DNA of 64,000 nt from Candidatus Omnitrophota bacterium (GTDB lineage: Bacteria; Omnitrophota; Gorgyraeia; Gygaellales; JAQTUX01): positions 269,639-333,638 of the forward strand of contig JAQTUX010000001.1 in NCBI GenBank assembly GCA_028707125.1, read 5' to 3'. The notes beneath the pieces are model-generated. The model did no database searches and was not told where the DNA came from. It saw only the letters and a program-made list of their open reading frames with translations. The translations under genes and the position numbers were made by a program. Shown here piece after piece: positions 7,710 to 64,000 of the stretch. Positions within the stretch are counted from its first letter, which is position 1. Each line of letters begins with the position of its first letter.

Positions 7710-10421
7710 ATGATAACGCTGGAAGACGTTTGGCTGAAATACAGGATAGCGTTCAAGGAAGGCGCGAGGGCCGTTTGCGAGGATTTCTGGGCGCTTAAGG
7801 GCATAGACCTGAATGTCGGCAAGGGAGAGTGTTTCGCGGTCATCGGAGAGAACGGCTCAGGCAAGACCACGCTCCTGAGGGTGATCAGCGGCATGCTAAT
7901 GCCTGACAAGGGCAGGGTGCGCCTGGGAGGAAGGGTCGCCGGGCTTATGGAGATACAGGCCGGTTTCCATCCTGAACTGACCGGCAGGGAGAATATCTAC
8001 AATATCTCGGCGCTTTCAGGCCTGAGCGCCGATGAGACAGGCGCCTGTTACGCGGACATGGTTGAGTTTGCCGCCATCGGCAGGTTCATCAACGCCCCGG
8101 TAAAGACATACTCCCAGGGCATGCTTGTGCGCCTTGCCTTTGCCATAGCCATACACGCGCGCACCGACATATTGCTGGTTGACGACATATTCGCGGTAGG
8201 CGATATTTATGCCCGGCGCAAGTGCATTAATAAGATGTTTGAGCTGAAGGATAAGGGCCTGACCATTATTTTTGTTTCTCATGACCTGGATATTGCCAGG
8301 CGGCTGTGTAAAAGAGGCGTGCTGCTCAGGGAAGGCAGGGTTATCAGGGCCGGTTCAATAGACGGACTCGTCAGTTATTATCTTGAGACGGTAGGCAATA
8401 AGGAAGGTATAGCCCTGCTGCAAAAAGGGCGGCTGGCAATTATTTTTAATAACGGCAAGCTGATCATCAGGTGGAACGACTCCGCTCTTACCAAGGGCGC
8501 GGCCGGGCATACGGTGATGAGCTCTTCGGGCAGGACATATCAGTCAGATACCGCCTCCTGGATTATCCGGCAGCCGGCGGCAGCCGATGAGATCGTTGCC
8601 GTAGGCAGGTGGCCGGATATGCCGGCTGAGCTTATCTGGAAGATACGCTGCCGCGGCGAAAAGGAATTCAGCTGGGATGTAACTCTGCAGGCGCGCGCAC
8701 AGGCCCGGATAGAGGATTACACGGCCAGATTGATCCTGACCGACGAATACGAGGGCTGGTTTACATCGCAGGAGGAATACGTTTTTCCGGAGGCGTTCCT
8801 GCATGAGAACGAATGGCAGAGCCGCCGGATAGACGATCATCTTAACTGGCTGATAGGGTTAAAGACGGGAGCCGATAGCGGCGAAGGCCTGCCAACGCTT
8901 GTTTTAGACAGCTCAGGCGCGGATAAACAGGGCGCCTGCCAGATCGGCAATACCGGCATTGAGGCCTCTGCCAGAGGTATTCAGTTCAATTACGTTAATC
9001 CGGAACCAGAGCATGCCGCGGGCAGCTATAAGTTTTTTTCAACCGGCGTGAAGTTATTTGAGGAGCGGGACAGGCAGGATTTTGAATGTTATATGGCGCG
9101 GGCAAGGCAGGCCGGCAGGCGCAGGATCATCAGCCGCGGCCCGCTCGCCCTGTGTTGCGGGCAGCGCAAAATAGAGATTTTCCTGCGGGATGCGCTTTTA
9201 AGCAGCGGCGCGGGGCTGGATACGAAATTCATCTGGCAGGGCCGTACCTACAGCGCCGCCGGAGGTAACTGGTCCGTAGAAAAAGAAGGAGATAATTATC
9301 TTGTAGTTAATATCTTTTGGGGGCCCGAAGCGCCTTTTTTCCAGGTATGGAGAATGGAACTGCGGGATGAGTCCGCCATTTTCTGGCAGGCGGATATGGA
9401 AATAAGAGATGGGCTGGAGATCAGGAACAGGCAGGTTGAGCTTTTTCTCAGCGGCCGATATGACAGGTGGTTTACGCCTTCGGAAAACGGCGACTTTGGG
9501 GCAGTGGAAAAAAAAGGCAACACAGTCATACTAAGTAAATACATAAACGATTTTTCCGGCGTAGAACAGTCCTGCCTTATGCCGGCGGTTACCTTCGCCA
9601 ATCAAGACGGCCGCGCCAGAGTGTCGTATATTTCCCGGGGCCAGGACAAGGAATTAAATACGAAGCTGCATTATCTGGAGATAGATCCCGCCGCTGACGC
9701 GGCGCTTGAAGCAGGCAGGCACGCCTTTTTTAAGGGGGCCATAAGGATAGCGCCCAGGCAGGGACAAAAAGGCGTTGACGCGGTTGTCAATAATAACGGC
9801 GCGGCCGCGGCGATAAATTTTAACGGCGTTTCTCTGGATTTCAGGCACGGCAGGATGCGTCTTTTCTATGAAGGCGTTGAATTGACAAAAGGGCTGGGCC
9901 TTTACTCTGCGGTTTTGCATGAAGGCAACTGGCATGATTCTTCGCAGGGACTATGGAAGGTCGAGGCCTCGGACAGGGAAAGGTTCGTCGCCGTGGGCCG
10001 CTGGCCGTGGCTGCCTGTCAGGCAGGAATGGGAAGTAACGCTATTGGATGGCCGCGATATCATCTGGCGCATAACCAGGGATACCCGGGACGGCTTTGAT
10101 CCCGACAAGGAGCAGGTTAACCTGATGCTGTCGGATAATTACCGGGAGTGGTTTGTCCGGGAAAGGGCGCGGGGAAGGTTTCCCGAAGAGTTTGCCGAGC
10201 ATACCCGCGGCGGGTTCTGGGAGCGGTTATGGTCGGCGGCAGCGCAGTCGCCGGTCGGCGCCAAAGGGCCTGGGCTGCCGTCTGTCCTCCTGGACTGTTC
10301 AGAGAGCCCGGTTCCCGGCCGCCTGTGCATTGAGAACACGGACGCGTTATTCAAGGCCAGGGTCCTGCAGTGCGAATCGGCGCAGCAAAAACATTTTAGC
10401 GGAAAGATAAAGATATGCTGA
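7710..10421 (+). CDS. ABC transporter ATP-binding protein (Wzt/TagH-like) with ~650-aa C-terminal extension of repeated Trp-rich beta domains
   Basis: Walker A GENGSGKTTLLRVISG, signature-like YSQGMLVRLAFA, Walker B ILLVDD. C-terminal 650 aa carry three related ~110-aa units, e.g. VAVGRWPDMPAELIWKIRCRGEKEFSWDVTLQ...YEGWFT / FWGPEAPFFQVWRMELRDESAIFWQADMEIRD...YDRWFT / VAVGRWPWLPVRQEWEVTLLDGRDIIWRITRD...YREWFV. Confidence 0.8.
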   Translation: MITLEDVWLKYRIAFKEGARAVCEDFWALKGIDLNVGKGECFAVIGENGSGKTTLLRVISGMLMPDKGRVRLGGRVAGLMEIQAGFHPELTGRENIYNISALSGLSADETGACYADMVEFAAIGRFINAPVKTYSQGMLVRLAFAIAIHARTDILLVDDIFAVGDIYARRKCINKMFELKDKGLTIIFVSHDLDIARRLCKRGVLLREGRVIRAGSIDGLVSYYLETVGNKEGIALLQKGRLAIIFNNGKLIIRWNDSALTKGAAGHTVMSSSGRTYQSDTASWIIRQPAAADEIVAVGRWPDMPAELIWKIRCRGEKEFSWDVTLQARAQARIEDYTARLILTDEYEGWFTSQEEYVFPEAFLHENEWQSRRIDDHLNWLIGLKTGADSGEGLPTLVLDSSGADKQGACQIGNTGIEASARGIQFNYVNPEPEHAAGSYKFFSTGVKLFEERDRQDFECYMARARQAGRRRIISRGPLALCCGQRKIEIFLRDALLSSGAGLDTKFIWQGRTYSAAGGNWSVEKEGDNYLVVNIFWGPEAPFFQVWRMELRDESAIFWQADMEIRDGLEIRNRQVELFLSGRYDRWFTPSENGDFGAVEKKGNTVILSKYINDFSGVEQSCLMPAVTFANQDGRARVSYISRGQDKELNTKLHYLEIDPAADAALEAGRHAFFKGAIRIAPRQGQKGVDAVVNNNGAAAAINFNGVSLDFRHGRMRLFYEGVELTKGLGLYSAVLHEGNWHDSSQGLWKVEASDRERFVAVGRWPWLPVRQEWEVTLLDGRDIIWRITRDTRDGFDPDKEQVNLMLSDNYREWFVRERARGRFPEEFAEHTRGGFWERLWSAAAQSPVGAKGPGLPSVLLDCSESPVPGRLCIENTDALFKARVLQCESAQQKHFSGKIKIC

Positions 10422-13400
10422 AGGGCCTTTTATTTAATAACAGGAACAGGCGCGCGATAGAACGCGCCGGCATAAAAATAGATATTGATGAAGAGCGCCG
10501 CTTCAGGATCTACCATAACGGCAGCGAGCTCAGCAAGCTGCAGGGCATGCGCGTCTGTTTGTTTTCAGAGGGCAGATGGCACTATTTTCCCGCCAAAGAC
10601 AGTATCTTGAAGATAAGCAGGCCCGATGAAACCAGTTTTAGTTTGCGGCTTTACAATAGAACGCTGCCTGTTGTCCTGCATTGGGGAATGGAGCTGGGTG
10701 AGGGCAGCCGGTTGAAATGGAGCGTGGAATTAGAGCTAAAGGGGCCCATACGGCTGGATGCCGTGAAGGCCGTAGTGCTCCTCAGCCGTTCCTATAAAAG
10801 CTGGTTCTCTTATTCCGGCGCTAAAGAGGGCCTGTTCGCTGATAGCGCCGGAGAATTCCGGCAGGAGATCGGTATTGCCGATTCTGATTTTTTAAGCATT
10901 GGCGCGGACAGGCCGGAAATTGCCACGCTGCTGTTAAGGGCGGTTGATTCGCCTTTAAATGTTTCTTTGTGTAACACGGATGATCTGTCTTCCTCGCGTG
11001 AAGTTGATCTCTGCTGCAACGGGCAGAAGGAATTTTATGCCCCCGGCAGGCACTCTTGTTTTCAGGCGGTTATTGAACTCTGCGGGGATAAGTCCGCAGT
11101 AGAAAATATCATTCAGGATGTAAAAGGCAGAAAGAGGCGCGAAGAAGAAGAGGCGCTGCGTAAAAAGGAAGAGGAGCGCCTGGCGGAAGAAGAACAGCGC
11201 CGGCTAGAGGAAGAACGCCTGCGCCAGGAGGAACAAAGGCGCCTGGAAGAAGAGCGCCGAAAACAGGAAGAGCTCAAGCGCCTGGAAGAAGAGCGCCTGA
11301 GAATTGAGCGCGCGCGGGACCGGCAGCGGCGCACGCTTGAGGCGGGTGATTTCAGGATTTATTTTGACTACAATAACCGTTTCCATTTCTACCACAGGAA
11401 TGAGGAGTTTACCAAGGCGCATGGCCTGCATACGGGTATATTTTCAGAGGGCCGCTGGTATGGTTCGGCGGATTCAGAGGCCGCTATAGAGAATAGTGAG
11501 CCGGGTAGATTAAGGATCAATTTCAGGCACAGACATCTGCCCGTTATTCAATCCTGGGACCTGCGGTTAGATTCCGCGGGAGTAATCAGGTGGAGCGTTG
11601 ATATGCGGCTTGAGCAGCCGTTAAGGATAGAGCGCAGGAACGCCTGCCTGTTTTTGTCCCGCGCCTATGACAGGTGGCTTGCGCCTCCGGACGCGGGGGC
11701 GTTCCCCGCGGCATTCGGCCTGCAATGGCAGATGGCCAGCCCTTCGGAGAGCAGGCCGGGCTTTATAGGGCTGACGTCCGGGATGAAGCAGCTGCCGGGC
11801 ATAACATTAAAGGGCTCCGAAGACGGCGGCCGCCTGGCTGTTCATAACGCGGATATGGATGTCTCATCCCGCGTCCTTGAGGAGCGTTTTGAAGAGCGCG
11901 TAGAGTTTTACAAGGCAGGCGATTACTCTTTCTCGCGGGCGGTCATCCGGCTTTATAATGATAACGCGGCCATCGAGGGCGCGTTCAAAGAGGCGGAAGA
12001 AAAAGAGAACGCGCTCAGAGAGTTGCGCAAAGAGCGGCTGAGGCGCGCCGCCGGGCTAAGGCAGGGGAGAAAAGAATTTGAGGGGCTGCGCCTGCGCCCC
12101 GCGGCCTCGCGCGTCGTTATTTACGGCGATTCCCAGGGCCTGCACGATAAGATCAGCGGCGAGGCAGGCGGTTTTAACAGGGCCGTAGCGTGCATTAAGG
12201 CAGAAAGCGGCACAGCCGCGGTAGGTATCTCACGGTTTAATTTCTTCAAGATCCATGAGGTCGTCCAGTTCATCTCTACTTTGAGGAACGCGCGGATCGA
12301 TACGCGCCCTGTCTGCCTGCCGCTGTTTCCGGCAAGCGGTATTTACTCCAGTTTTCTTAATTACATAAAGGAGATCAAATCTCTCGTCGCAGGAAAGGGC
12401 ATCGAACTTTTCTTAAAAGACGTTGATCTGCTCAAACTCCTGCAGGCTGTGTCTTCGCAGTCCAATAGAGATAACGAGAGGGACCTGCTGCGGCTTCTGG
12501 GGCTGATAGCCGAGCATCCCTTTATCGGGCCGCAGACGCTGGTCCTCGACACAACGCATAAATGCAATACAAACTGCGCCCATTGCTGGATACACAACCC
12601 CCGCAGCAAGACGCCCCCCGCCGTGCTCGAATCAAAGATGGACGACCGCCTGTACAGGAAGATCATTGACGACGCGGCAGCCATTTTGAGCGACGAGGTC
12701 ATAATACAGGGCGACGGAGAGCCGCTTCTGGACGACCGCTTTATCGAGATGGCGCGTTACGCCAGGGACAAGGGGTTAAAGGTCCTGTTCTTTACCAACG
12801 GCATACTCCTGGATGAGGCGACGGCTAAATGCCTGATAGACCTGGAGGTCAATGAGATATTCTGCAGCCTGCCCGCCGGGACCGACCTGACCTACAGCTG
12901 GATAAATTCGCGGCAGTCAAAAGACACCTTCCACAGGATCGTCGGCAATCTGAAAAACCTGATCTCCCTGAGGAACGGCTCGGGCAGGCCCCTGCCGCTT
13001 TTGCAGATGACCCACGTGATACACAATATGAATTGCCATGAGATCGAGCAGATGTCCGCTGTTGACGCGGACATAGGCGCGGACAGGGCACGCTTCTACC
13101 TGGCCCGCCTTGACGAGAACATCGCGCATTTAAAGATACTATCTTCACAGGTAGAGGCGCTAAAGGCATCCCTGCGGAAGGCCGCCGCGTTGCTTAAAGA
13201 AAGCAAAATAGACCTGCAGGACAATATTTTTTTCCAGCTGGACAATTATCAGCCGGAGACCGGTTACTGGTCGCAGGGCCGTTTTCTTGAAACGGGCTGC
13301 CCGGTGGGGTGGTTTTTCGCGCTGATATTGGCTGGAGGAGAATTGAGCATGTGCTGCCATATGCGGGTGGTCGGGCGCCTGGGGGAAAGATCGCTGAGGG

Positions 13401-13588
13401 AGGCGTGGAATTCCCGGGAATACAACGATTACAGGGTCAAGGCCAAACATATGCGGGACAATATGGACGCGCGTTTCTCAAACGGCGTCAAGCTTTACGA
13501 TGATTTCTGCAATCATTGCGATACGCATCAGGTGATCTTAAGGATAAACGGCCTGCTGGAGCGATACGGGCTGAAGAAATTCTTATAA
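10415..13588 (+). CDS. Multidomain radical SAM/SPASM protein: Trp-rich domain - ER/K-rich single alpha-helix - Trp-rich domain - linker - radical SAM core - Cys-rich C-terminal (SPASM-like) domain
   Basis: CX3CX2C motif in LVLDTTHKCNTNCAHCWIHNP. C-terminal cysteines GCPVGW...MCCHM...FCNHCDTH. Two N-terminal domains (RWHYFP...LHWGMELGEGSRLKWSVELEL...YKSWFS; RWYGSA...QSWDLRLDSAGVIRWSVDMRL...YDRWLA) resemble the ABC ATPase tail repeats. Charged stretch EEEALRKKEEERLAEEEQRRLEEERLRQEEQRRLEEERRKQEELKRLEEERLRIERARDRQRR. Confidence 0.8.
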   Translation: MLKGLLFNNRNRRAIERAGIKIDIDEERRFRIYHNGSELSKLQGMRVCLFSEGRWHYFPAKDSILKISRPDETSFSLRLYNRTLPVVLHWGMELGEGSRLKWSVELELKGPIRLDAVKAVVLLSRSYKSWFSYSGAKEGLFADSAGEFRQEIGIADSDFLSIGADRPEIATLLLRAVDSPLNVSLCNTDDLSSSREVDLCCNGQKEFYAPGRHSCFQAVIELCGDKSAVENIIQDVKGRKRREEEEALRKKEEERLAEEEQRRLEEERLRQEEQRRLEEERRKQEELKRLEEERLRIERARDRQRRTLEAGDFRIYFDYNNRFHFYHRNEEFTKAHGLHTGIFSEGRWYGSADSEAAIENSEPGRLRINFRHRHLPVIQSWDLRLDSAGVIRWSVDMRLEQPLRIERRNACLFLSRAYDRWLAPPDAGAFPAAFGLQWQMASPSESRPGFIGLTSGMKQLPGITLKGSEDGGRLAVHNADMDVSSRVLEERFEERVEFYKAGDYSFSRAVIRLYNDNAAIEGAFKEAEEKENALRELRKERLRRAAGLRQGRKEFEGLRLRPAASRVVIYGDSQGLHDKISGEAGGFNRAVACIKAESGTAAVGISRFNFFKIHEVVQFISTLRNARIDTRPVCLPLFPASGIYSSFLNYIKEIKSLVAGKGIELFLKDVDLLKLLQAVSSQSNRDNERDLLRLLGLIAEHPFIGPQTLVLDTTHKCNTNCAHCWIHNPRSKTPPAVLESKMDDRLYRKIIDDAAAILSDEVIIQGDGEPLLDDRFIEMARYARDKGLKVLFFTNGILLDEATAKCLIDLEVNEIFCSLPAGTDLTYSWINSRQSKDTFHRIVGNLKNLISLRNGSGRPLPLLQMTHVIHNMNCHEIEQMSAVDADIGADRARFYLARLDENIAHLKILSSQVEALKASLRKAAALLKESKIDLQDNIFFQLDNYQPETGYWSQGRFLETGCPVGWFFALILAGGELSMCCHMRVVGRLGERSLREAWNSREYNDYRVKAKHMRDNMDARFSNGVKLYDDFCNHCDTHQVILRINGLLERYGLKKFL
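11140..11310 (+). repeat. 39-nt tandem coding repeats (x3-4) encoding the ER/K-rich helix
   Basis: gaagaacagcgccggctagaggaagaacgcctgcgccag / gaggaacaaaggcgcctggaagaagagcgccgaaaacag / gaagagctcaagcgcctggaagaagagcgcctgagaatt (11189-11305), preceded by a degenerate copy. Confidence 0.7.
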
Positions 13589-13593
13589 AAGAT

Positions 13594-15798
13594 ATGAAGA
13601 TATCATTGGTAAATCTGCCCTGGAGGAGTTTTGGCAGGGAGGGGGTGAGGGCTGGTTCCCGCTGGCCGCATTTGAAGGCCCGCTCGGAGAAAGAATATCT
13701 GCCTTTCCCCTTTTTTCTCGCCTACGCGGCGGCGCTGCTTAAAAAGAACGGATTTAACGCGCGGCTCATTGACGCCATCGCCAGCGGCCTGTCTTACAGG
13801 CGGTTTTCGCGCCGGATGCGCTCCAGCCGCCCCGACATCCTGGTCTGCGAGACGTCCACGGTGACCCTCAAGCATGACTTGCGGGTCCTGAAGGGCCTGG
13901 GGAGCAAGGCGGAGATCATCCTTTGCGGCCCGGATGTCAATATCCGCCGGCCGGATTTTCTCAGGGAGAACGGATTTATAAAATATGTGCTGTCCGGAGA
14001 ATATGAATTTACGCTCCTTGAACTGCTGCAGCATCTTGATGAGGGCCGCGGCCTTGATGAGGTAAAGGGGATCATATACCGCTCTAACGGCGGCGTGAAG
14101 ATCAATCCCGCGCGGCCCCTGGTTGACCTGGACCGCCTGCCCTGGCCTCTGCGCGAAGGCCTGCCGATGTCGCGTTACAACGATGCCCCGGGAGACATAC
14201 CCATACCGTCGGTGCAGATGATGGCCTCACGCGGCTGCCCGTTTCGCTGCAAGTTCTGCCTCTGGCCGCAGGTGATGTATCAGGGCAGCCATTACAGGGC
14301 CAGGAGCGTCGTGGACGTCGTTGATGAAATGGAATACCTGGTCAGGAATTCGGGATACAGGTCGGTCTATTTTGACGACGATACCTTTAACTGCGGCAAA
14401 GAAAGGATGCTCGGCCTCTGCGCTGAGATCAAGAAGAGGGGCCTGAATATCTTCTGGGCGATAATGGCAAGGGCCGACCTGATGGATGAGGAGATCCTGG
14501 TGAATATGAAAGAGGCGGGGTTGTTTGCCGTCAAATACGGCGTGGAATCCGCCGATAACTCCCTGTTGGACAATATCAATAAGGGTATGTCGCTTGAAAA
14601 AACAGAGGCCGTCATCAAGATGACCAGGGCGCTGGGCATCAAGACCCACCTGACCTTTACCCTGGGCCTTCCGGGAGAGACCAGGCAGACCATAAAAAAG
14701 ACGGTTGATTTCGCCTTAAAGGCCGATCCGGAATCGCTTCAGTTTTCCCTGGCTACGCCGTTTCCGGGAACGGAGTTCTACAGGGAGATGAAGGAGAACG
14801 GCCGGATAATCTCCGCTGATTGGGCAAGATACGATGGAAGCCGCAGCAGCGCGCTCGCCTATGACGATCTCTCCGCGGGCGAGCTTGAGCGCGCCATGAG
14901 GTCGGCTTACAGGCGGTGGGCAATGCACCGTTTGAAAAGGGCCCGTTTTGACCGATTGGGGCTAAAGGCGTATTGCCGCTATTCCCTTGTCAATTCAATA
15001 AATAGCAACGGAATTGTCATGACCGCTTATAAGGTTTCGCGGTTTGCTTTCAGGTACGCGCTTATGCACGTGAGGGAGGCGTTGGTGTCCTCGCCCCGTA
15101 AGATTGAAAACATCGCGCGGGAAAAGGGGTTGAAACTGGGAAGGATGTCCCTGGTCCCGGACGGCCGCGGCCTGAGTTTGTTCTGGGGCGGCCTCAAGTT
15201 GACCCGCGGACGCGGATTTTACAGCTTTCTAAATTTTGAAGGCGCGGATAACGGCAGCGACGGCGCGCTTAAATGGGACACGCAGAGGCCGGACGCGGGC
15301 AGCATTATATTGAGGCGCCTGTATGACGGCGCCGGCATTGAGGAGATATGGAAGATAACCGCGCTGGATGAAAAGCAGATCGGCTGGGACGTGGATATTG
15401 AAATAAAAAAAGAGACGGGTGTGCGGCAGGAAGATATCGGCCTGGCGCTTACGCGCAAATACCGCAAGTGGATAGAAGAATGGGGCGAGGGCAGGTTTCC
15501 CCCTTTGAACGATTACCGCGAAGTTGAGCTCAGGAACGCGCGCAGCGCCGTTGTCGGCGTAAGGGGCAGGAGGGCATTGAGGAATACTCTGCCCACGGTC
15601 CTGCTTGACCTGTCCGCCGGCAATAACGGTTTTCTCCCGTCGGTAGGGAACTCGGCAGAAGGGCATCACGGCCGCCTGCTCGGGGTCAGGCTCGCGCGAG
15701 GGGCCCGCGTCCGCAGATACGCCGCCGGAAGGCACAGGTTGTTGTCGGCCAGGATAAAGATAGTGGAAGAGGATTTCGCGAAGGGCGGGCGAAGATGA
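13594..15798 (+). CDS. B12-binding (class B) radical SAM protein with C-terminal Trp-rich domain
   Basis: N-terminal Rossmann-like B12-binding region (ISLVNLPW..., LIDAIASG, ILVCETS). Radical SAM MASRGCPFRCKFCLWP. C-terminal IWKITALDEKQIGWDVDIEIKKETGVRQEDIGLALTRKYRKWIEEW matches the Trp-rich domain. Start moved to the Met at 13594, just after the upstream stop (ORF track begins at 13516). Confidence 0.8.
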   Translation: MKISLVNLPWRSFGREGVRAGSRWPHLKARSEKEYLPFPFFLAYAAALLKKNGFNARLIDAIASGLSYRRFSRRMRSSRPDILVCETSTVTLKHDLRVLKGLGSKAEIILCGPDVNIRRPDFLRENGFIKYVLSGEYEFTLLELLQHLDEGRGLDEVKGIIYRSNGGVKINPARPLVDLDRLPWPLREGLPMSRYNDAPGDIPIPSVQMMASRGCPFRCKFCLWPQVMYQGSHYRARSVVDVVDEMEYLVRNSGYRSVYFDDDTFNCGKERMLGLCAEIKKRGLNIFWAIMARADLMDEEILVNMKEAGLFAVKYGVESADNSLLDNINKGMSLEKTEAVIKMTRALGIKTHLTFTLGLPGETRQTIKKTVDFALKADPESLQFSLATPFPGTEFYREMKENGRIISADWARYDGSRSSALAYDDLSAGELERAMRSAYRRWAMHRLKRARFDRLGLKAYCRYSLVNSINSNGIVMTAYKVSRFAFRYALMHVREALVSSPRKIENIAREKGLKLGRMSLVPDGRGLSLFWGGLKLTRGRGFYSFLNFEGADNGSDGALKWDTQRPDAGSIILRRLYDGAGIEEIWKITALDEKQIGWDVDIEIKKETGVRQEDIGLALTRKYRKWIEEWGEGRFPPLNDYREVELRNARSAVVGVRGRRALRNTLPTVLLDLSAGNNGFLPSVGNSAEGHHGRLLGVRLARGARVRRYAAGRHRLLSARIKIVEEDFAKGGRR

Positions 15799-42825: not shown

Positions 42826-42983
42826 CAGGGACAGCGGCCGCTATAGAATAAAATATACGTAGCAGAAAGGAAGGATGCGTTTTATACTGACGGTATTATT
42901 AACGATCGCGGCTTTGGGCATGGATTGTTTCCTGTGGCTGCTTAAGAGGATCAAAAAAATATGCGTTTTCCCCGGGGGGTAAG

Positions 42984-53067: not shown

Positions 53068-53085
53068 GGGCCCGACAGGACTAAC

Positions 53086-57464: not shown

Positions 57465-58497
57465 GATCACAGCGCCGTTTAACAGCAGGGATGAAGTGAA
57501 GATAATGGCCGGATACGGGGCGGATGAGCTTTACTGCGGCTATCTTGCGCCTGAGTGGGCCAGGCATTATTCAAACCTTGAATTTGAAAGAAAAGGGGGG
57601 GTGGAAAGCAATTTTACGGATTTGGACGAACTTAATAAATCGGTTGAGCTGGCGCACCGCTATAATATCCCTGTTTTTCTCGCCTTGAACGGGCTTTACG
57701 TAAGACATCAATATCCGCTCCTTTTGAAGATTATCGATAAACTCAGGCAGATTGATTTTGACGCCTTTATAGTCGCGGATATGGGCCTGATATTAACGCT
57801 GGTTGAGCGCGATATCGGCAAAAAGCTCCACATATCCACGGGAGGCACGGTATTCAATACGGACGCGGTGGGTTTCTACCGCAGGTTCTCTCCGGAGCGC
57901 GTCATTTTAGACCGTCAGCTTACAATCCGGCAGATCAGCGGACTGGTCAAGAGAAACCCGGGCGTGGATTTTGAGGCCTTCATTTTCAGTACGATCTGCG
58001 TTCACATAGACGGGTTTTGTACATTTATGCATTCATACGGCGCAAACAGGGAAGAAAGTATCGCGCACTGCTCAGGGCTGGATCCAAAGCTGTATTTCGC
58101 CACAACATACGATCCCGAGGCTTTTGAGGATGCCTGCTCTTTGCGCTACGCCGTTAAAGTTTATGAACAAGGTAGGGCGGCCAGCCGCAAAAATAATGTA
58201 ATGCCCGCTTTTTATAAACGTCAGATGGACGGTATGGCCTGCGGGATATGCGCGATGTACGACCTGAATAAGGCGGGGGTAAGGGCGGTCAAGGTGGTGG
58301 GAAGGCAGGTTGGCCGTATAAGACGGTTGAAGAGCGTGGAATTCGTCGCGCGGGCGCGCGCCTTATTGGATGCGGATCCCGCTATTAAACGGAAAGAATT
58401 TATTCGGCGCTGTAAAGATATGTATCGCGAAGTTTGGGAATATAAAGGCCGGTGCAAAGGGAACAACTGCTATCATCCTTCTTTTGCGCGCGATTAA
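57457..58497 (+). CDS. Peptidase U32-family protein (UbiU/RlhA/TrhP-like)
   Basis: MIKITAPFNSRDEVKIMAGYGADELYCGY...ELAHRYNIPVFLALNGL...DAFIVADMGLILTLVE follows the U32 N-terminal TIM-barrel pattern. Cys clusters STICVHIDGFC, CGICAMYD, CKGNNC. Confidence 0.65.
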   Translation: MIKITAPFNSRDEVKIMAGYGADELYCGYLAPEWARHYSNLEFERKGGVESNFTDLDELNKSVELAHRYNIPVFLALNGLYVRHQYPLLLKIIDKLRQIDFDAFIVADMGLILTLVERDIGKKLHISTGGTVFNTDAVGFYRRFSPERVILDRQLTIRQISGLVKRNPGVDFEAFIFSTICVHIDGFCTFMHSYGANREESIAHCSGLDPKLYFATTYDPEAFEDACSLRYAVKVYEQGRAASRKNNVMPAFYKRQMDGMACGICAMYDLNKAGVRAVKVVGRQVGRIRRLKSVEFVARARALLDADPAIKRKEFIRRCKDMYREVWEYKGRCKGNNCYHPSFARD

Positions 58498-58515
58498 AAC
58501 AAAGGGAACATCCGG

Positions 58516-59382
58516 ATGGAAAAAGCGGTTTATATAGCGGATAAAAGGCGGCTGAAGAGTTTGAAGAAGGGCGCGGCCACAAGGATCTATTTCGGGGCTG
58601 AGTTCTGCGAGCGGCTTATCCCTTCCATTGGGGAGTGCAGGGAGGTTATTTCCCGGGCGCGCGATAAAGGCATGGATTTCTCGCTGGTCACTCCTTATGT
58701 GACCGACACAGGTATCAGCCGCCTAAGGTGTTTATTCGATCTTATGTCCTGCCTGGATGTGCCCGTTGAGGTGATAGTGAATGATTGGGGTGTTTTGGGC
58801 CGGTTGCGTAATGAATATACCGGACTTGTGCCTGTTCTGGGGCGTCTTTTGACCAAGCAGAAGAGGGGGCCGCGCATAAGGCGGCTGCTGGAAAGGCGCC
58901 TTCCTTCAAAGATCATCCGGCCGAAAGAGCCGTCGCGGCAGGGCGCAATGATTATTGTCGCCGAGAAACTTCCTCCGGATACCGATTTTTATTACCGCGG
59001 TTCCAGTGTCACGAGCGTGCCCGTAATCCATAAATTTCTTAAAGAAAATAACGTATACAGGATCGAGATTGATAACCTTCTGCAGGGTATTTATCTGGAG
59101 ATGGAGAATTCAGGCATTTCGGTGTCCGTCTATACGCCCTACGCGTATATATCGACTACGATGTTCTGCCCTACTGTCGGCTGCGAACGGAAGAAAAAGC
59201 CGTTTTTAAGGGTGCGCCCCTGCGTGAAAGAATGCCGCAGGTACACATTCCGCCTGAGGCATAAAAGCATGCCGGAAGATATCATTTTAAAAGGGAACAC
59301 GCAATTTTACAAAAACGGCCTCGGCTCGATCAGAAAATTAGAGCAGGCAGGTATAGATCGTATAGTGTATCAGCAATTGTAA
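58516..59382 (+). CDS. Second U32-like protein (UbiV-like partner?)
   Basis: AATRIYFGAEFCERLIPS...ARDKGMDFSLVTPYV...VIVNDWGVL parallels the U32 N-terminal barrel. Cys-rich C-terminus MFCPTVGCERKK...RPCVKECRRY. Confidence 0.45.
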   Translation: MEKAVYIADKRRLKSLKKGAATRIYFGAEFCERLIPSIGECREVISRARDKGMDFSLVTPYVTDTGISRLRCLFDLMSCLDVPVEVIVNDWGVLGRLRNEYTGLVPVLGRLLTKQKRGPRIRRLLERRLPSKIIRPKEPSRQGAMIIVAEKLPPDTDFYYRGSSVTSVPVIHKFLKENNVYRIEIDNLLQGIYLEMENSGISVSVYTPYAYISTTMFCPTVGCERKKKPFLRVRPCVKECRRYTFRLRHKSMPEDIILKGNTQFYKNGLGSIRKLEQAGIDRIVYQQL

Positions 59383-59397
59383 TTTAAGGGTGGGGTT

Positions 59398-60798
59398 GTG
59401 ATCGTGACACGGATCAAACATAAGTTTTTCCTGATGTTCGGTGCTGTTTTAGTTTTCCTGCTCATGCTTGAGGTCGTATTTCGCATAGCGGGATTCATTC
59501 TGCTGTCGTTTCAGGAGAGGGATAACCCGGTTTTGCTGGATAAACAGGAGGAGCTCCGTATTGTGTGCCTGGGAGAGTCCACCACCGCCTTCGGCGGCAG
59601 GGATTCTTATCCTTATCAATTGCAGGAGGTCCTGAGCGCCAGGATCCCCGGGGTTAAATTCAAGGTCATCAACAAAGGCGTTGCCGGAGTTGATACGGCG
59701 TTTTTCCTTTCCAAACTTGATGAGAATTTGGCCAGATATAAGCCCGATATGGTCATTACGATGTTGGGGACCAACCAGAATGATAATTCAATGAAATTTG
59801 AGGAAACACTGAGATTCAGGATAAAGCTGCTGGTGTATGAAATCAAGGTCTATAAGATGGTACGCCTGCTTTTTGACAGGATGAGGGTTAAATCCCGCAA
59901 CCGCATCTACGATAGAATGTATATGCCGCCGAATGAGGCGGGCGCCGGAGTGGCCCCTGATAGCGACCGCGCATACACGGAGATGGGGTTTATGGAGAAA
60001 GAGCAGGGCCGCCGCATCAGGGCGCTGGGACATTTCAAAAAGGCGATCCGGATGAATCCTTCAAACAGCTGGGCGCGTGTCGGCCTGGCCATGGTTTATA
60101 AAGAGATGGGCAGATTGGATGAGGCAATAGGCGCGCTCAGGGCCGCTATAGAAATAAACCCTTTGAGCGAGGCAGGCAACAGGGAGCTGGCGTGGTGCCT
60201 AAAGAAACAAAAGAGGTATGATGAGGCGGGATCCATATATCAAAAGATCATTAAGGATATAAAACCGCAAAACGGCTTCCTGTATATGGAGGCGGGATTA
60301 TTTTATAAAGAGATGGGCAGGTACCCGGAGGCGATTTCCGCCTTTGAGCGCGGTTTTGAGCTTAACCCTGAGACGGAAAACTTCTACGGCGACCTCGCCT
60401 TTTGTTATGAGCAGGCCGGCAAAGACGACCTGGCAAAGAGGTGCTATAGTAAATTTAATAAGTCGCTTTACACAACTTATAACCCCGCCACGATCTACAA
60501 TTACAGGCAATTGCGTGACAGGATCCTGGCAAAAGGTATTTTGCTGGTTTGTATGCAATATCCGGTGCGTCCCGTGGAGCCGTTAAGGCGCATCCTTGAG
60601 GGGCGTGAAGTGGTCATCTTCGTTGATAACGAGCGGGTCTTCAAGATGGCGGTAGCCAGGGACGGCTATGAGGAGTATTTTTATGATAATTTCCGCGGCG
60701 ATTTCGGCCATTGTACCCGCAAGGGCAACCGGCTGCTTGCCGAAAACCTTGCCGGTGTGCTGGAAAGGGAATGTTTCCGGGAAAGGACGAAGATATGA
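59398..60798 (+). CDS. Membrane-anchored SGNH-family hydrolase with TPR-like insert (paralog 4; GES variant)
   Basis: TM N-terminus; RIVCLGESTTAFGGRDSYPY; MVITMLGTNQND; FRGDFGHCTRKGN; TPRs (YTEMGFMEKEQGRRIRALGHFKKAIRMNPSNSWARVGLAMVYKEMGRLDEAIGALRAAIEINP). GTG start assumed. Confidence 0.65.
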   Translation: MIVTRIKHKFFLMFGAVLVFLLMLEVVFRIAGFILLSFQERDNPVLLDKQEELRIVCLGESTTAFGGRDSYPYQLQEVLSARIPGVKFKVINKGVAGVDTAFFLSKLDENLARYKPDMVITMLGTNQNDNSMKFEETLRFRIKLLVYEIKVYKMVRLLFDRMRVKSRNRIYDRMYMPPNEAGAGVAPDSDRAYTEMGFMEKEQGRRIRALGHFKKAIRMNPSNSWARVGLAMVYKEMGRLDEAIGALRAAIEINPLSEAGNRELAWCLKKQKRYDEAGSIYQKIIKDIKPQNGFLYMEAGLFYKEMGRYPEAISAFERGFELNPETENFYGDLAFCYEQAGKDDLAKRCYSKFNKSLYTTYNPATIYNYRQLRDRILAKGILLVCMQYPVRPVEPLRRILEGREVVIFVDNERVFKMAVARDGYEEYFYDNFRGDFGHCTRKGNRLLAENLAGVLERECFRERTKI

Positions 60799-61784
60799 AT
60801 GTCGGATTGACGAACAGGTGTAATTTCAACTGTCCGTTTTGTTTTGCCAGGGACGCCATGTCCATCAGCAGGGCGATGAAGCAAGACAATGAGATCAGCA
60901 TGGACAGTATAAACAAGGTAATAAGATTCCTTAAAAAGTCGGGGCAGGATACCTTTAATATGATAGGCGGCGAGCCCACGCTGCATTCCAGGTTCAGGGA
61001 TATTTACGAGAAGATCGAGAATGAAGGCCTTGCCGTGTCGGTTTTTTCCAATGGCCTGATGCGCGAGGGCATAGCAGAGTTCCTCAGAGAAAGAAAAGGC
61101 CTCAGATGCGTCCTCATTAATATCCTTGAGCCGAGGCATTACACCAAGGAATTATGGGGCACGCTCAACAGGGCCCTGTCTGTGCTCAAGGATAAGGCCG
61201 TCCTGAGTTTCAGGATATACGAAACGGCCTTCAGGATCGATTTTCTCATTCCTTTGATCGACCGCTACGGCCTTTGCAGGGCAGTGAACCTGGCGCCGGC
61301 CTGCCCCAGCCTGAAAAGAAAAAACGTGTTTTTGCAAATAGAAGACCATAAACGGGTTTCCGCGAAGCTTCTGCGTTATTCATACAGGTTCCGGCAGCAC
61401 CGGATAAAGTGGTATTCCGATAACGGATTTATATATTGCGCCTTTACGCGTGAGCAGCTTAAGGGGCTGTACGCAAACACAGGGTTTATCCCGGCTTGCG
61501 TATGCCGCGCGCCCGTAGAGGTGGCGCCGAATCTTACGGTATTCAGGTGTTTCGGCATGGCGGAAAAATCCGACAGGGATATGAAGCTGACAGATTTCAG
61601 CGACCTGGCTTCGCTTGAGTGGTTTTTTGATAAAAAAACCTTTGTCTTGAAACGCGCCGGATTAAAGGACGAATGTCTCTACTGCGGCGATATGGAAAAG
61701 GGCAATTGCGACGGCGGCTGCGCGGTGCATATTATCAGAAGATTTCCGGGTTATAAGACGGCATCGGCACTGTATAAACAATGA
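60795..61784 (+). CDS. Radical SAM/SPASM-domain protein
   Basis: MNVGLTNRCNFNCPFCFARD; MIGGEPTL; C-terminal CVCRAP...FRCFG...CLYCGDMEKGNCDGGCAVH (SPASM-like Cys pattern). Start set at the Met at 60795, overlapping the upstream stop in ATGA (ORF track begins at 60711). Confidence 0.75.
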   Translation: MNVGLTNRCNFNCPFCFARDAMSISRAMKQDNEISMDSINKVIRFLKKSGQDTFNMIGGEPTLHSRFRDIYEKIENEGLAVSVFSNGLMREGIAEFLRERKGLRCVLINILEPRHYTKELWGTLNRALSVLKDKAVLSFRIYETAFRIDFLIPLIDRYGLCRAVNLAPACPSLKRKNVFLQIEDHKRVSAKLLRYSYRFRQHRIKWYSDNGFIYCAFTREQLKGLYANTGFIPACVCRAPVEVAPNLTVFRCFGMAEKSDRDMKLTDFSDLASLEWFFDKKTFVLKRAGLKDECLYCGDMEKGNCDGGCAVHIIRRFPGYKTASALYKQ

Positions 61785-62890
61785 TCGGGATAAACGTAAA
61801 CATAAACAGTTATTGTGATCTTGATTGTCCATACTGTTTCGGCAAGGAGTATATGCGCAGCAGCGCTCATAGGCTTGCCAGAAGCGAGATGACGTTTAAC
61901 GGATTCAGGAAGGCCGTTGATTTCCTGAGGAGGGCCAGGGTGAATATCTGCAATATAGGCGGAGGCGAGCCCACCCTGCATCCGAGATTCATTCAATTCG
62001 CCGCCTACGCCCTTTCGCAGGGCTGTTTTCCGGTACAGGTTTATACGAACGGCTTATTTTCCGAACGCGTCCGAGGCGCGCTGACAGATATTAAAGATAA
62101 AAGAAGATTATTCTTTCTTTGGAATATCAATCATCCGAAGTCATATTCAAAAGACAACTGGAGGCGGCTCAATGAGAACTTAAGCGTTATCGCCGCTCTG
62201 GGCACCTCCAGTTTCGGGGTAAACTTATATAAGAGACGGCAGGACCTGGATTATGTTTATGAATTAGCGGATAGATATTCGCCTTTGCAGCTGCGTTTAT
62301 GCGTTGCCCATCCGTCCGGTCCCGGGGCGCGCAATCGGTTTGTGGCAACCGGCGAAAGCCCGGCTGTGATAAAGGACGCCATGAAACTGATAAGGGGCCT
62401 GCGGCGTCGAGGGATGAGGGTTATATTTGACTGCGGCATAGTGCCTTGCCTGTTGAGTGATAAGGACCTCGGCTTCCTCACCAGGCACGGCGTTCATTTA
62501 GGCGCCTGCCGCAACCTCGCCGTGATAGGGCCCGATCTGAGCGTCTTTAATTGTTTTCAGAACGACAGCGTTACGGACAGGAGGACTCTTGGAGATTTTT
62601 CTTCTCTTCAGGAGATAGAAAAGCATCTTTCTGAAATAAGGTCGCGATTCGATATGGTCTTTCTTTTCAAGGAATGCCTGCGCTGTCCGATGTCGTGCGA
62701 CCTCGGATGCCTGGCTGAAAGGAAGATGATCGCCGCTGACTATGCCGGCTCCTTGCGGCGTACGCTCAAGAGGAAAGGCGCTGATCCCGGAGCCGGCCCG
62801 GCGATCGGGATGTTCCATTCCGGGCAGGAGAAAGAAGCCGGGGCGTATATTTACGGCAGCTCTTCCAGGGGCATTAAGGCCGGCAGATGA
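61781..62890 (+). CDS. Radical SAM/SPASM-domain protein
   Basis: NINSYCDLDCPYCFGKEYM; IGGGEPTL; C-terminal CLLSD...GACRNL...FNCFQ...CLRCPMSCDLGC. Confidence 0.75.
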   Translation: MIGINVNINSYCDLDCPYCFGKEYMRSSAHRLARSEMTFNGFRKAVDFLRRARVNICNIGGGEPTLHPRFIQFAAYALSQGCFPVQVYTNGLFSERVRGALTDIKDKRRLFFLWNINHPKSYSKDNWRRLNENLSVIAALGTSSFGVNLYKRRQDLDYVYELADRYSPLQLRLCVAHPSGPGARNRFVATGESPAVIKDAMKLIRGLRRRGMRVIFDCGIVPCLLSDKDLGFLTRHGVHLGACRNLAVIGPDLSVFNCFQNDSVTDRRTLGDFSSLQEIEKHLSEIRSRFDMVFLFKECLRCPMSCDLGCLAERKMIAADYAGSLRRTLKRKGADPGAGPAIGMFHSGQEKEAGAYIYGSSSRGIKAGR

Positions 62891-64000
62891 AGATGAAGCC
62901 CACATTCACGTTTATTTCCCTTTTCAATCAGCATGCCATCAGTTTAAGGCCGCTTTTGTCTGTCCTGGAAAACGCGGGATTCAGCACGAACGTTGTTTTC
63001 TTCAAGCGCAGGGAAGACCAGGGGCGTTTCACGCCTAAAGAGCTCGCCCTTCTTACGGCCGTGATTGATATGCTTAAGACCGATTACGTTATGATCTCGC
63101 TCGTCTCCGGGGCTTATCAGGCCGCCAAAGCAATATCCTTAAAGCTGCGGAAGGAAAAAAAGAGGCGGTTTATCGTCTGGGGCGGCGTGCATCCTACCCT
63201 GGCCCCTGAAGATTGCATTAGGTATGCCGATGCCGTGTGCATAGGGGAAGGTGAGGGGGCTGTCCTGGATCTGGCAAGGGAGTTTGCCACGGGCCCGTTA
63301 CGCAGAAAGACGATAAGAAACTTATGGGTCAGGGGCGGCGGAGACGGGGTCAAATGTAAGTTGCGCCCGCTTTGTGATCTAAACGCCATTCCGGCCTATA
63401 AACCCAGGGATAATATATACCTGATAAGCAACGACCGCATAGGCAGATATAGCGATGCCAGCGAACTGGTTATTATTTCAAGAGGATGCCCTTTTGAATG
63501 CGCCTTTTGCTGCAATGCGGCCGTCAGGGGTTTATACGGAAGGCCGAAGGGTTTTCACAGGGCGCTTACCGTTGAAAACGCGATCAAGGGCCTTTTAGAG
63601 ATGAAGTCCCGGGGGGTAAGGCGCCTTGTCTTCGTTGACCCGATATGGCCCTATAATGACATTGATATTATGAAGGAGTTTAAAAGGGATTATAAAAAGC
63701 ATGTCGGTCTCCCTTTTTCCTGCGCCGTGTACCCTACCATGGTAAACGAACATCTGGTGGAGGGGCTGGAGCAATGCGGCTGTAAGAGTTTATTTATGGG
63801 GATACAGAGCCCTTCGGAAGATGTGCGGCAGCTGTTCCGGCGGCCCTATTCCGATGACGCGGTCGTAAATGCCGCGCGCATTATCGATAAAAATAACATC
63901 ATCGGGATATACGATTTCATAGATAAGAACATATTTGAAGGGCCGGAGCATCTTTTGAGAAAGAAGCTGCTTATTGAGCGGCTGCCCGCCGGCTCCGTTA
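62887..64000 (+). CDS. B12-binding radical SAM protein (3'-partial, runs off window)
   Basis: FTFISLFNQHAISLRPL...YVMISLVSGAYQ...FIVWGGVHPTL (B12-binding fold); IISRGCPFECAFCCNAAV; MGIQSPSEDV. No stop before the window end. Confidence 0.75.
   Translation, partial: MKMKPTFTFISLFNQHAISLRPLLSVLENAGFSTNVVFFKRREDQGRFTPKELALLTAVIDMLKTDYVMISLVSGAYQAAKAISLKLRKEKKRRFIVWGGVHPTLAPEDCIRYADAVCIGEGEGAVLDLAREFATGPLRRKTIRNLWVRGGGDGVKCKLRPLCDLNAIPAYKPRDNIYLISNDRIGRYSDASELVIISRGCPFECAFCCNAAVRGLYGRPKGFHRALTVENAIKGLLEMKSRGVRRLVFVDPIWPYNDIDIMKEFKRDYKKHVGLPFSCAVYPTMVNEHLVEGLEQCGCKSLFMGIQSPSEDVRQLFRRPYSDDAVVNAARIIDKNNIIGIYDFIDKNIFEGPEHLLRKKLLIERLPAGSV

Follow-up and report, generated by a model that had tools for sequence, protein, structure and literature searches.

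The 64,000-nt window analyzed here (contig JAQTUX010000001.1) contains one operon of a Candidatus Omnitrophota bacterium, which runs on the + strand from position 6933 to beyond 64000 and in which genes for radical S-adenosylmethionine (SAM) enzymes lie next to genes for glycan assembly and export. The locus is conserved, and its probable role is to rewrite a sugar polymer of the cell surface by means of radical reactions. We favor, with moderate confidence, a reading in which the operon builds a lipid-linked cell-surface glycan by an ATP-binding cassette (ABC) transporter-dependent route, and in which the radical SAM enzymes tailor this glycan while it is still in the cytoplasm. A carbohydrate substrate is supported, indirectly but independently, by a rare domain shared between the exporter and two radical SAM enzymes (domain X), by the linkage to a GT4 glycosyltransferase gene, and by the closest relatives of the enzymes: BlsE is the nearest structure to the small radical SAM paralogs and HpnJ the nearest family to ORF6. 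Predicted folds, gene fusions and synteny thus support the glycan or glyco-conjugate tailoring system that an initial annotation of the window, made from its letters alone, had suggested. A conserved operon in which more than half of the genes encode radical SAM enzymes implies glycan structures that nobody has seen.

An operon dominated by radical SAM genes

Every open reading frame (ORF) of at least 250 amino acids in the window lies on the + strand, and the GC skew is positive over nearly its whole length. The operon spans at least 57 kb, and its genes abut or overlap except at one 158-bp gap. Upstream of 6933 lies a 277-bp gap, the last of more than 160 bp before position 64000. We set the operon start at 6933, the first position of an ABC-2 permease gene; a second Omnitrophota genome opens the locus with the same gene order. 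Within the 277-bp gap, before the first operon gene, a consensus scan detected one weak candidate promoter.

6845-6874 (+): promoter-like site, 9/12 consensus matches

Pfam scans covered 45 complete + strand ORFs and one that is truncated at its 3′ end. Twenty-six proteins passed the gathering cut-off of PF04055 (29.5 bits) with scores of 39.4–83.4 bits, and all 26 carry a CX3CX2C motif. Their genes, all on the + strand, make up 26 of the 42 genes in 10415–64000 and 26 of the 44 in the operon as counted from 6933. The initial annotation had read about 25 co-directional radical SAM genes from motifs in a block from 10415 to 64000. The profile search confirmed the radical SAM identity of these proteins and, closely, their number; the radical SAM genes do lie in this block, but the unit opens earlier, with the permease at 6933, and overruns 64000. 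None of the radical SAM proteins tested reached a curated NCBIfam cut-off.

The proposed division into enzyme types held in part. The 13 small MoaA/twitch-like paralogs were recovered as such. Of five larger enzymes described as SPASM-like, ORF5, ORF7 and ORF27 match SPASM (PF13186; ORF27 is borderline), which together with 11 of the small paralogs gives 14 SPASM matches among the radical SAM proteins, but ORF44 and ORF45 match Radical_SAM only. Of six enzymes described as B12-binding, ORF20 and ORF46 pass the PF02310 cut-off, but ORF6 stays below it and ORF19, ORF23 and ORF24 show no match. The predicted HemN-like enzyme is ORF39, with HemW, ChuW and HemZ family matches that all lie under their cut-offs, and ORF37, described as a small activase-like enzyme, is a radical SAM protein but belongs to no recognizable family. 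An Rfam scan of the whole window detected no riboswitch or other RNA family, cobalamin and SAM riboswitches included.

Genes for glycan assembly and export

The operon also carries the complete glycan assembly and export set that had been claimed for it, which is of the Wzm/Wzt type: an ABC-2 permease (PF01061) is encoded next to an ABC ATPase (PF00005), together with a Bac_transf priming enzyme (PF02397), two GT4 and two GT2 glycosyltransferases, a Wzy_C protein with tetratricopeptide repeats (TPR) and a PMT_2 membrane glycosyltransferase of the GT-C type. Homologs of the ATPase are named polysaccharide/polyol-phosphate ABC ATPase by the Joint Genome Institute (JGI). The SGNH hydrolases described as interleaved with the radical SAM genes are four SGNH/GDSL proteins with TPR, each with an N-terminal membrane anchor. 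In total, seven proteins of the window carry TPR domains.

6933-7709 (+): ORF3, ABC-2 (Wzm-type) exporter permease (PF01061, 42 bits; six hydrophobic segments)
7710-10421 (+): ORF4, ABC exporter ATPase, 903 amino acids (PF00005, 67 bits; three C-terminal copies of domain X)
19163-20449 (+): ORF10, membrane-anchored SGNH/GDSL hydrolase with TPR (PF13472, 56.8 bits; N-terminal hydrophobic anchor)
32047-33357 (+): ORF21, membrane-anchored SGNH/GDSL hydrolase with TPR (Pfam, hydrophobic anchor)
41614-42825 (+): ORF28, membrane-anchored SGNH/GDSL hydrolase with TPR (Pfam, hydrophobic anchor)
42984-44177 (+): ORF29, GT4 glycosyltransferase, conserved partner of radical SAM genes (PF13692, 95.9 bits)
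44180-46561 (+): ORF30, Wzy_C protein (O-antigen ligase/polymerase family) with C-terminal TPR array (PF04932, 71 bits; 12 hydrophobic segments)
46568-47398 (+): ORF31, GT2 glycosyltransferase (Pfam)
47398-48378 (+): ORF32, GT2 glycosyltransferase (Pfam; homologs 3′ of the GT4 gene in other loci)
48365-49492 (+): ORF33, GT4 glycosyltransferase (Pfam)
49495-50121 (+): ORF34, Bac_transf priming phosphoglycosyl transferase (PF02397, 202.6 bits)
55728-57464 (+): ORF40, PMT_2 GT-C membrane glycosyltransferase (Pfam, hydrophobic segments)
59398-60798 (+): ORF43, membrane-anchored SGNH/GDSL hydrolase with TPR (35% identical to ORF28)

Domain X is shared by the exporter and two radical SAM enzymes

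BLAST comparisons within the window revealed a unit of about 200 residues, here called domain X, which occurs three times in the exporter ATPase ORF4, twice at the N terminus of ORF5 and once at the C terminus of ORF6. The genes of these two radical SAM enzymes and of ORF7 directly follow that of the ATPase.

10415-13588 (+): ORF5, 1057 amino acids, two copies of domain X (residues 8–207 and 308–516) followed by a radical SAM/SPASM module
13594-15798 (+): ORF6, HpnJ-like, class-B-like radical SAM enzyme, domain X at the C terminus (PF04055, 83 bits)
15795-17114 (+): ORF7, radical SAM/SPASM enzyme of the conserved core, 439 amino acids (PF04055, 72 bits; SPASM, 40 bits)

The C-terminal 680 residues of ORF4 consist of three domain X repeats (residues ~225–452, 470–680 and 695–896), and a domain X profile matches the protein in three stretches (P0121). 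In ORF6 the domain comprises residues 530–752, counted in the longest ORF (from 13516); the start chosen here is that of the public call (P0275/MDD4909321.1). Even at E = 5, Pfam gives no match to domain X (ORF4 residues 221–903), which therefore does not belong to the Wzt_C family. Against PDB sequences, the domain X profile gave a chance-level match only, and its alignment scored no match in a word-indexed homology search. Its AlphaFold2 model is all-beta (predicted local distance difference test, pLDDT, 85; predicted template modeling score, pTM, 0.81), and the modeled fold is galactose-mutarotase-like, a fold of sugar handling; it is similar to the sugar-binding supersandwich found in mutarotases and in accessory domains of glycoside hydrolases.

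In 1.84 billion representative proteins, searched exhaustively with the profile, domain X occurs in only 631, typically in 2–8 tandem copies. Among 50 sampled domain X proteins, ABC_tran is present in 24, Radical_SAM in ten (nine with SPASM, one with B12) and PMT_2 in two (one also with PMT). Domain X proteins with a named organism are from Omnitrophota. Domain X is a previously unrecognized, rare domain family. A shared substrate-recognition module would be expected to look like this: rare, with a predicted sugar-type fold, and common to an exporter, to tailoring enzymes and to membrane glycosyltransferases. Domain X could be used as a handle to find the substrate.

The catalytic part of ORF6 is closest to HpnJ: it scores 272.3 bits against TIGR03471 (E 8e-81, 417 of 472 model positions), which is below the equivalog cut-off of 577.6 bits, and its match to the B12-binding family PF02310 is weak (22.4 bits against a cut-off of 32.1). 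No squalene-hopene cyclase or other hpn gene was found by Pfam scans in the window.

Thirteen small paralogs resemble BlsE

The 13 small paralogs (320–356 amino acids) form one family with pairwise identities of 31–45%.

17114-18169 (+): ORF8, small radical SAM paralog 1 (Pfam, alignment)
18166-19176 (+): ORF9, small radical SAM paralog 2 (Pfam, alignment; L001 ortholog 71% identical)
20421-21443 (+): ORF11, small radical SAM paralog 3 (Pfam, alignment, ortholog comparison)
21418-22488 (+): ORF12, small radical SAM paralog 4 (Pfam, alignment, ortholog comparison)
22481-23479 (+): ORF13, small radical SAM paralog 5 (Pfam, alignment, ortholog comparison)
23463-24455 (+): ORF14, small radical SAM paralog 6 (Pfam, alignment, ortholog comparison)
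24452-25522 (+): ORF15, small radical SAM paralog 7 (Pfam, alignment, ortholog comparison)
25488-26531 (+): ORF16, small radical SAM paralog 8 (Pfam, alignment; no L001 ortholog)
26512-27498 (+): ORF17, small radical SAM paralog 9 (Pfam, alignment, ortholog comparison)
27499-28494 (+): ORF18, small radical SAM paralog 10, structure modeled
33323-34357 (+): ORF22, small radical SAM paralog 11 (Pfam, alignment, ortholog comparison)
37990-38991 (+): ORF25, small radical SAM paralog 12 (Pfam, alignment; among the best conserved across loci)
38999-39961 (+): ORF26, small radical SAM paralog 13 (start inferred from paralog alignment; longest ORF from 38798)

Eleven of them pass the Pfam SPASM cut-off, ORF9 lies just under it and ORF25 shows no match. 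The alignment shows several invariant aromatic residues, an invariant GGE motif and, eight residues upstream of the CX3CX2C motif, an invariant Cys. The C-terminal Cys set numbers five (C-x16-C ... C-x3-C-x5-C), with one further N-terminal Cys; this pattern differs from that of the full seven-Cys SPASM domain (CX9-15GX4C ... CX2CX5CX3C ... C) as well as from the BtrN twitch, and ORF25 lacks three of the C-terminal Cys that the other paralogs keep. The radical SAM motif begins at residue ~17–38, so that there is no room for an N-terminal recognition domain.

The closest structural match, with ORF18 as the modeled representative, is BlsE, followed by SkfB, anSME and SuiB. Against the BlsE equivalog model (TIGR04466) the small paralogs score 37–45 bits, below the cut-off of 400, and sequence identity to the group of BlsE, DesII and BtrN is only 17–20%. 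With BlsE for the small paralogs and HpnJ for ORF6, the closest matches of both are enzymes that act on sugar rings, and peptide maturases come next.

Public gene calls from the same organism start ORF11, ORF14 and ORF18 (20421, 23463 and 27499; L002 2296, 5326 and 9344) 21–31 codons late. These starts fall within the overlap with the preceding gene, and a check showed that the first Cys of the CX3CX2C motif is lost in ORF11 and ORF18. Automated annotation therefore under-reports this motif in the array.

The array is ancient and its architecture recurs

An exact-sequence search with ORF9 gave no match. The great majority of ORF18 and ORF6 homologs stem from metagenome-assembled genomes (MAGs) of Candidatus Omnitrophota; one MAG protein, MDD4909321.1, is 100% identical to ORF6, and its record says only “radical SAM protein”. 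A second Omnitrophota genome (GCA_028716965.1; L001 and L097) has the same layout, with permease, ATPase (940 amino acids), ORF5-like (1061 amino acids), ORF6-like and ORF7-like genes, followed by orthologs of ORF8 (twice), ORF9, ORF11–15, ORF17, ORF18, ORF20 (54% identical), ORF22, ORF24, a fused ORF25 and ORF26, ORF27 and the GT4 gene. Eleven of the 13 small paralogs have one-to-one orthologs there in the same order, with identities of 49–71%, and these orthologs are far closer to each other than the paralogs of the window are. A neighbor-joining tree that included eight further loci gave a separate orthogroup for nearly each window paralog. One-to-one orthologs in the same order and separate orthogroups indicate that the array is ancient and non-redundant, and the retention of every member of such an old array argues for distinct, non-redundant roles.

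Conservation extends to the genes around the array. The exporter genes, permease first and then ATPase, open the locus also in L097, L096 and L007–L013, and ORF7 orthologs (43–55% identity) adjoin ORF6 orthologs in 11 genome loci, where some are fused to them. ORF25 orthologs are 66–76% identical in L001, L016, L017, L019, L025 and L026. Orthologs of ORF27 (61–78% identity) lie immediately 5′ of the GT4 gene on many contigs. In the metagenome contigs scanned, ORF29 has 294 relatives, and radical SAM genes of the ORF27 or ORF7 type directly precede GT4 on most of the long contigs that reach upstream. Two architectures recur. The expanded one is window-like, with small paralogs followed by ORF25, ORF26, ORF27 and GT4. 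The core one comprises the exporter ATPase, ORF6, often ORF20, three ORF7-type modules as separate genes or as a triple fusion, two GT4 and one GT2, and is found also in MAGs labeled Planctomycetia and Desulfobulbaceae. Related loci also bring other genes of the glycan type: L097 has a polysaccharide deacetylase and PMT_2, L010 a carbamoyltransferase, L065 PMT_2 and L012 a polyprenyl synthetase.

Several radical SAM genes are fused in other genomes. The orthologs of ORF25 and ORF26 form one protein of 686 amino acids (L001 15089–17149), three ORF7-type modules are joined in proteins of ~1420–1460 amino acids (L004 8138–12406, L009 8153–12412, L011 8057–12436), and ORF6 and ORF7 orthologs are joined in proteins of 936–962 amino acids (L008 8534–11422, L010 8390–11200). 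Such fusions suggest that these enzymes operate as complexes. In the core of a Desulfobulbaceae MAG, a polyprenyl synthetase gene lies between the ORF6-like and ORF7-like genes (L012 8944–9867).

The initial annotation had considered that the arrangement might turn out to be a common, already annotated locus type. It does recur in Omnitrophota, but carries no label beyond “radical SAM protein”. A literature search of 8 million full texts (Omnitrophota, radical SAM, polysaccharide, O-antigen) found no description of the locus, and two 2026 preprints on Omnitrophota genomes name radical SAM just as a Pfam domain within giant proteins. No paper on the locus was found and no NCBIfam cut-off reached, in keeping with the initial annotation, which knew of no characterized polysaccharide or glycoprotein locus with such a density of radical chemistry.

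Proposed pathway and alternative explanations

From the observed family membership, gene order, conservation, domain sharing and predicted folds we infer the following substrate, order of steps and reactions. ORF34 would prime a polyprenyl-phosphate-linked glycan, which the GT4 and GT2 enzymes would extend on the cytoplasmic face. The core enzymes would modify the sugar, namely the HpnJ-like, class-B-like ORF6 and three SPASM enzymes, ORF5, ORF7 and ORF27, with ORF5 and ORF6 tethered to it through the galactose-mutarotase-like domain X. The BlsE-like small enzymes, at least 12 in number and of ancient divergence, would each perform one site-specific reaction begun by hydrogen abstraction, for which decarboxylation, dehydration, oxidation, epimerization and ring contraction are candidates, and the class-B-like and HemN-like enzymes may add C-methyl groups or rearrange sugars. 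The Wzm/Wzt-type pair ORF3/ORF4 would export the finished chain, and the three domain X copies of ORF4 probably recognize the tailored glycan. In the periplasm, the Wzy_C-TPR protein ORF30 would ligate or polymerize the chain, the GT-C enzyme ORF40 may decorate it and the four anchored SGNH-TPR proteins may add or remove acyl groups. The lack of nucleotide-sugar synthesis genes fits a diversification on the polymer and not at the monomer stage.

A bolder version of this scheme is that sugars of an envelope polymer are rewritten after its assembly by an ordered line of at least 20 radical SAM enzymes, and that export is gated by a new carbohydrate-binding module; we put it forward tentatively, and judge it somewhat more likely to be wrong than right. 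If true, the product could contain units beyond the reach of ordinary glycosidases, namely carbocyclic, C-branched or deoxygenated ones or ones with C-C/C-O cross-links. Glycans would then be diversified in a new way, by radical tailoring of the polymer and not by varying the nucleotide sugars, and this could further account for the ability of these small, possibly predatory cells to withstand their own and their neighbors' hydrolases.

Several observations weigh against a glycan substrate. The ~57 kb operon contains no nucleotide-sugar synthesis gene (Pfam: no NAD-dependent epimerase/dehydratase, aminotransferase or nucleotidyltransferase), which is unusual for a glycan locus. ORF6, at 272 bits, falls well short of the HpnJ cut-off. 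SkfB, anSME and SuiB are the next structural matches after BlsE, and the SPASM domain is known above all from peptide maturases; TPR on seven proteins would suit a protein substrate. Finally, the polyprenyl synthetase gene inside the L012 core fits an isoprenoid lipid substrate equally well.

The peptide-like features could reflect modification of a peptide made by ribosomes and modified after translation (RiPP) or of a protein: SPASM/twitch enzymes would act on a ribosomal substrate encoded outside the window or on the fiber-like ORF1, which the glycan genes would then glycosylate. We consider this unlikely. It would account for the 14 SPASM matches, for SkfB, anSME, SuiB, CteB and PqqE among the top structural and sequence neighbors, for the seven TPR proteins and for ORF38, a HemK-like enzyme from a protein methyltransferase family; ORF1 adjoins the operon on the same strand and is ~22% Ser+Thr, and O-oligosaccharyltransferases also have the Wzy_C fold. 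However, the only two gaps of more than 100 bp hold one hydrophobic 35-codon ORF and no precursor-like ORF, and Pfam scans of the 46 proteins gave no match to PqqD or a RiPP recognition element (RRE), to a leader peptidase or to a C39-type ABC exporter, in agreement with the earlier statement that the window contains no plausible precursor peptide. Moreover, an N-terminal recognition domain would find no space in the small paralogs, the exporter belongs to the ABC-2 polysaccharide type, ORF1 is not found beside related loci, and the module common to enzymes and exporter has a predicted fold of the carbohydrate type.

Tailoring of a lipid, i.e., of an isoprenoid or membrane-spanning lipid or of its sugar head group (hopanoid, calditol, tetraether or ladderane type) that the ABC-2 transporter exports as a glycolipid, is likewise improbable in our estimate. 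ORF6 is nearest to HpnJ, several class-B-like proteins match TIGR04072 (“lipid biosynthesis B12/radical SAM”) below its cut-off, GDGT-MAS/Tes are among the neighbors, the L012 polyprenyl synthetase lies between the orthologs of ORF6 and ORF7, and, for some MAGs of Omnitrophota, published surveys describe homologs of the radical SAM enzymes Mss/Hbs as well as “ladderane-like” clusters. Yet Pfam found no fatty-acid, isoprenoid, squalene-cyclase or ether-lipid gene in the window, the Tes scores are 40–50 bits against a cut-off of 450, the glycosyltransferases, priming transferase, Wzy_C and GT-C enzymes indicate a polymer and not a single head group, and the modeled fold of domain X is of a carbohydrate-processing type. 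If the substrate is the sugar or glycan of a glycolipid, this explanation merges with the glycan pathway proposed above. That BlsE, DesII, BtrN and AprD4, the nearest characterized relatives, all come from antibiotic sugar pathways, and that L010 combines a carbamoyltransferase with a major facilitator superfamily (MFS) transporter, would also suit a secondary metabolite, such as a diffusible, heavily modified oligosaccharide or an aminoglycoside- or nucleoside-like compound made as an accessory trait. This we regard as very unlikely: the priming transferase, Wzy_C, GT-C and ABC-2 exporter are hallmarks of a surface glycoconjugate, and one-to-one orthologs and synteny over many Omnitrophota genomes and contigs suit a housekeeping envelope trait better.

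Comparison with known systems

The export part of the operon resembles Wzm/Wzt systems such as that of E. coli O9a or TagGH of teichoic acids. In both, an ABC-2 permease is encoded beside an ATPase with a C-terminal extension, and a polyprenyl-phosphate priming transferase, cytoplasmic GT2/GT4 enzymes and a Wzy_C membrane protein are present, with no need for a Wzx flippase. In O9a, the C-terminal module of Wzt binds the finished, capped chain; this module is a model for the role of domain X by functional analogy and without homology. In contrast to Wzm/Wzt systems, the extension of ORF4 consists of three predicted mutarotase-like domain X copies and not of Wzt_C, the domain also occurs in radical SAM enzymes, and the operon lacks nucleotide-sugar genes. 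We know of no ABC transporter-dependent glycan pathway with radical SAM enzymes, whereas the operon described here has 26.

Known radical SAM chemistry on sugars involves single enzymes of antibiotic and lipid head-group pathways; to our knowledge, it has not been described in surface polysaccharide assembly. BlsE, DesII and BtrN are twitch-type enzymes that act singly on antibiotic sugars, in contrast to the 13 paralogs in a row of the window, which also have an invariant extra upstream Cys and a C-terminal Cys pattern of their own. HpnJ is of the class B (B12-domain) type and, like ORF6, is paired with a glycosyltransferase, but ORF6 has an additional C-terminal domain X, has no hopanoid genes nearby and is encoded in an exporter and glycan operon. 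Knockouts tie HpnJ and the calditol synthase Cds to the conversion of a lipid-bound hexosamine or hexose into a carbocyclic polyol, for which ring contraction is a proposed and not a demonstrated mechanism (PMC13459092). RiPP clusters (sactipeptides, ranthipeptides, streptide, pyrroloquinoline quinone) share with the window several SPASM/twitch genes and an ABC exporter, and SkfB, SuiB, CteB and PqqE are close structural neighbors; the window differs in having no precursor, RRE or leader peptidase, and in its polysaccharide-type exporter, glycan genes and predicted carbohydrate-type module.

The components of the operon are thus members of known superfamilies and its export route is known; new are the domain X family and at least 12 enzyme orthogroups without an assigned reaction. 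These orthogroups of small, sugar-type radical SAM enzymes give enzyme discovery a large pool to draw on. Such arrays are probably tagged as RiPP or “ladderane-like” by genome-mining tools; if so, biosynthetic surveys of anoxic environments would be corrected once the arrays are read as glycan loci. Omnitrophota are widespread, mostly uncultured bacteria with very small cells and suspected host-dependent or predatory lifestyles, in which the envelope is central.

Other radical SAM and accessory genes

The remaining radical SAM genes lie among and downstream of the small paralogs and the glycan genes.

28484-30640 (+): ORF19, N-terminal TPR and class-B-like radical SAM (PF04055, 62.6 bits; TPR families)
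30633-32054 (+): ORF20, B12-binding radical SAM (PF02310, 39.9 bits, cut-off 32.1; PF04055, 56.9 bits)
34348-36402 (+): ORF23, N-terminal TPR and class-B-like radical SAM (Pfam, window comparison)
36383-37993 (+): ORF24, class-B-like radical SAM, no B12 Pfam match (L001 ortholog 55% identical)
39966-41636 (+): ORF27, radical SAM/SPASM, 556 amino acids (43% identical to ORF5; paralog of its catalytic half)
52144-53067 (+): ORF37, small radical SAM with CNCSCYFC motif (PF04055, 39.8 bits)
54154-55731 (+): ORF39, HemN-like radical SAM (PF04055, 68.5 bits; HemW 134 and ChuW 116 bits, both below cut-off)
60711-61784 (+): ORF44, radical SAM without SPASM match (PF04055, 55.9 bits)
61781-62890 (+): ORF45, radical SAM without SPASM match (PF04055, 39.4 bits; 29% identical to ORF44)
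62887-64000 (+): ORF46, B12-binding radical SAM, cut by the window end (PF02310, 46.7 bits; PF04055, 63.5 bits)

ORF19, ORF23 and ORF24 align with ORF20 and ORF6 across 250–450 residues, and their matches to class B families are below cut-off. ORF19 is 39–44% identical to ORF23 and ORF24, and its sub-cut-off matches include the ApyD and PhpK families. ORF37, ORF44 and ORF45 belong to no recognizable radical SAM subfamily. Nothing usable came from a lenient Pfam scan of ORF5 and ORF27 in their N-terminal regions.

Further genes follow the glycosyltransferase genes.

50135-51283 (+): ORF35, DUF362 protein (copies 72–74% identical in L039 and L077)
51234-52211 (+): ORF36, N-terminal hydrophobic segment, family unrecognized (weak homologs after the DUF362 gene in L039 and L077)
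53086-54105 (+): ORF38, HemK-like SAM-dependent methyltransferase (Pfam, NCBIfam)
57457-58497 (+): ORF41, peptidase U32 family, UbiU-like (PF01136, 96.8 bits; UbiU, 100 bits against a cut-off of 440)
58516-59382 (+): ORF42, 288 amino acids, family unrecognized

In L039 and L077, the DUF362 gene again comes after glycosyltransferase genes and is followed by an ORF36-like gene. The conservation of ORF35 within this locus type is unusually high for a DUF362 protein without an assigned function. ORF36 has no Pfam match, also in a lenient scan, and no NCBIfam match. The gene of the HemN/ChuW-like ORF39 neighbors that of the HemK-like ORF38, and the UbiU-like ORF41 precedes ORF42. UbiU belongs to a family of O2-independent hydroxylases, and ORF38, ORF39, ORF41 and ORF42 may provide extra anaerobic hydroxylation and methylation steps. 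ORF42 has no match in Pfam, also in a lenient scan, in NCBIfam or among PDB sequences, and we dropped the idea that ORF41 and ORF42 form a UbiU/UbiV-like pair. In the only sizeable gap within the operon, just 5′ of the GT4 gene ORF29, lies a hydrophobic ORF of 35 codons (42875–42982, +; MRFILTVLLTIAALGMDCFLWLLKRIKKICVFPGG), which may be a small membrane protein or spurious. A basic 47-codon ORF in L001 was considered as a precursor and rejected; it has no counterpart in the window.

The region upstream of the operon

ORF1 (129–6179, +) encodes a protein of 2016 amino acids without any Cys, in which Gly, Thr, Ala and Ser are abundant. It contains many “GNVGIGT..P..LDV” repeats, a C-terminal Peptidase_S74 intramolecular chaperone domain and a weak match to a PHROG tail-fiber family, and looks like a surface fiber of the phage-tail-fiber kind. 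As a conserved substrate of the operon ORF1 was rejected, with no counterpart beside any related locus; L097 has a deacetylase and PMT_2 at this place. ORF2 (6257–6655) encodes a 23S rRNA intervening-sequence (four-helix bundle) protein and is flanked by a 41-nt imperfect inverted repeat with TATCAG/CTGATA units (6188–6228 and 6729–6769, 83% complementary), within which a perfect 15-nt inverted repeat is nested (6269–6283 and 6677–6691). The segment 6188–6769 looks like a small, stem-flanked cassette that has been inserted between ORF1 and the operon.

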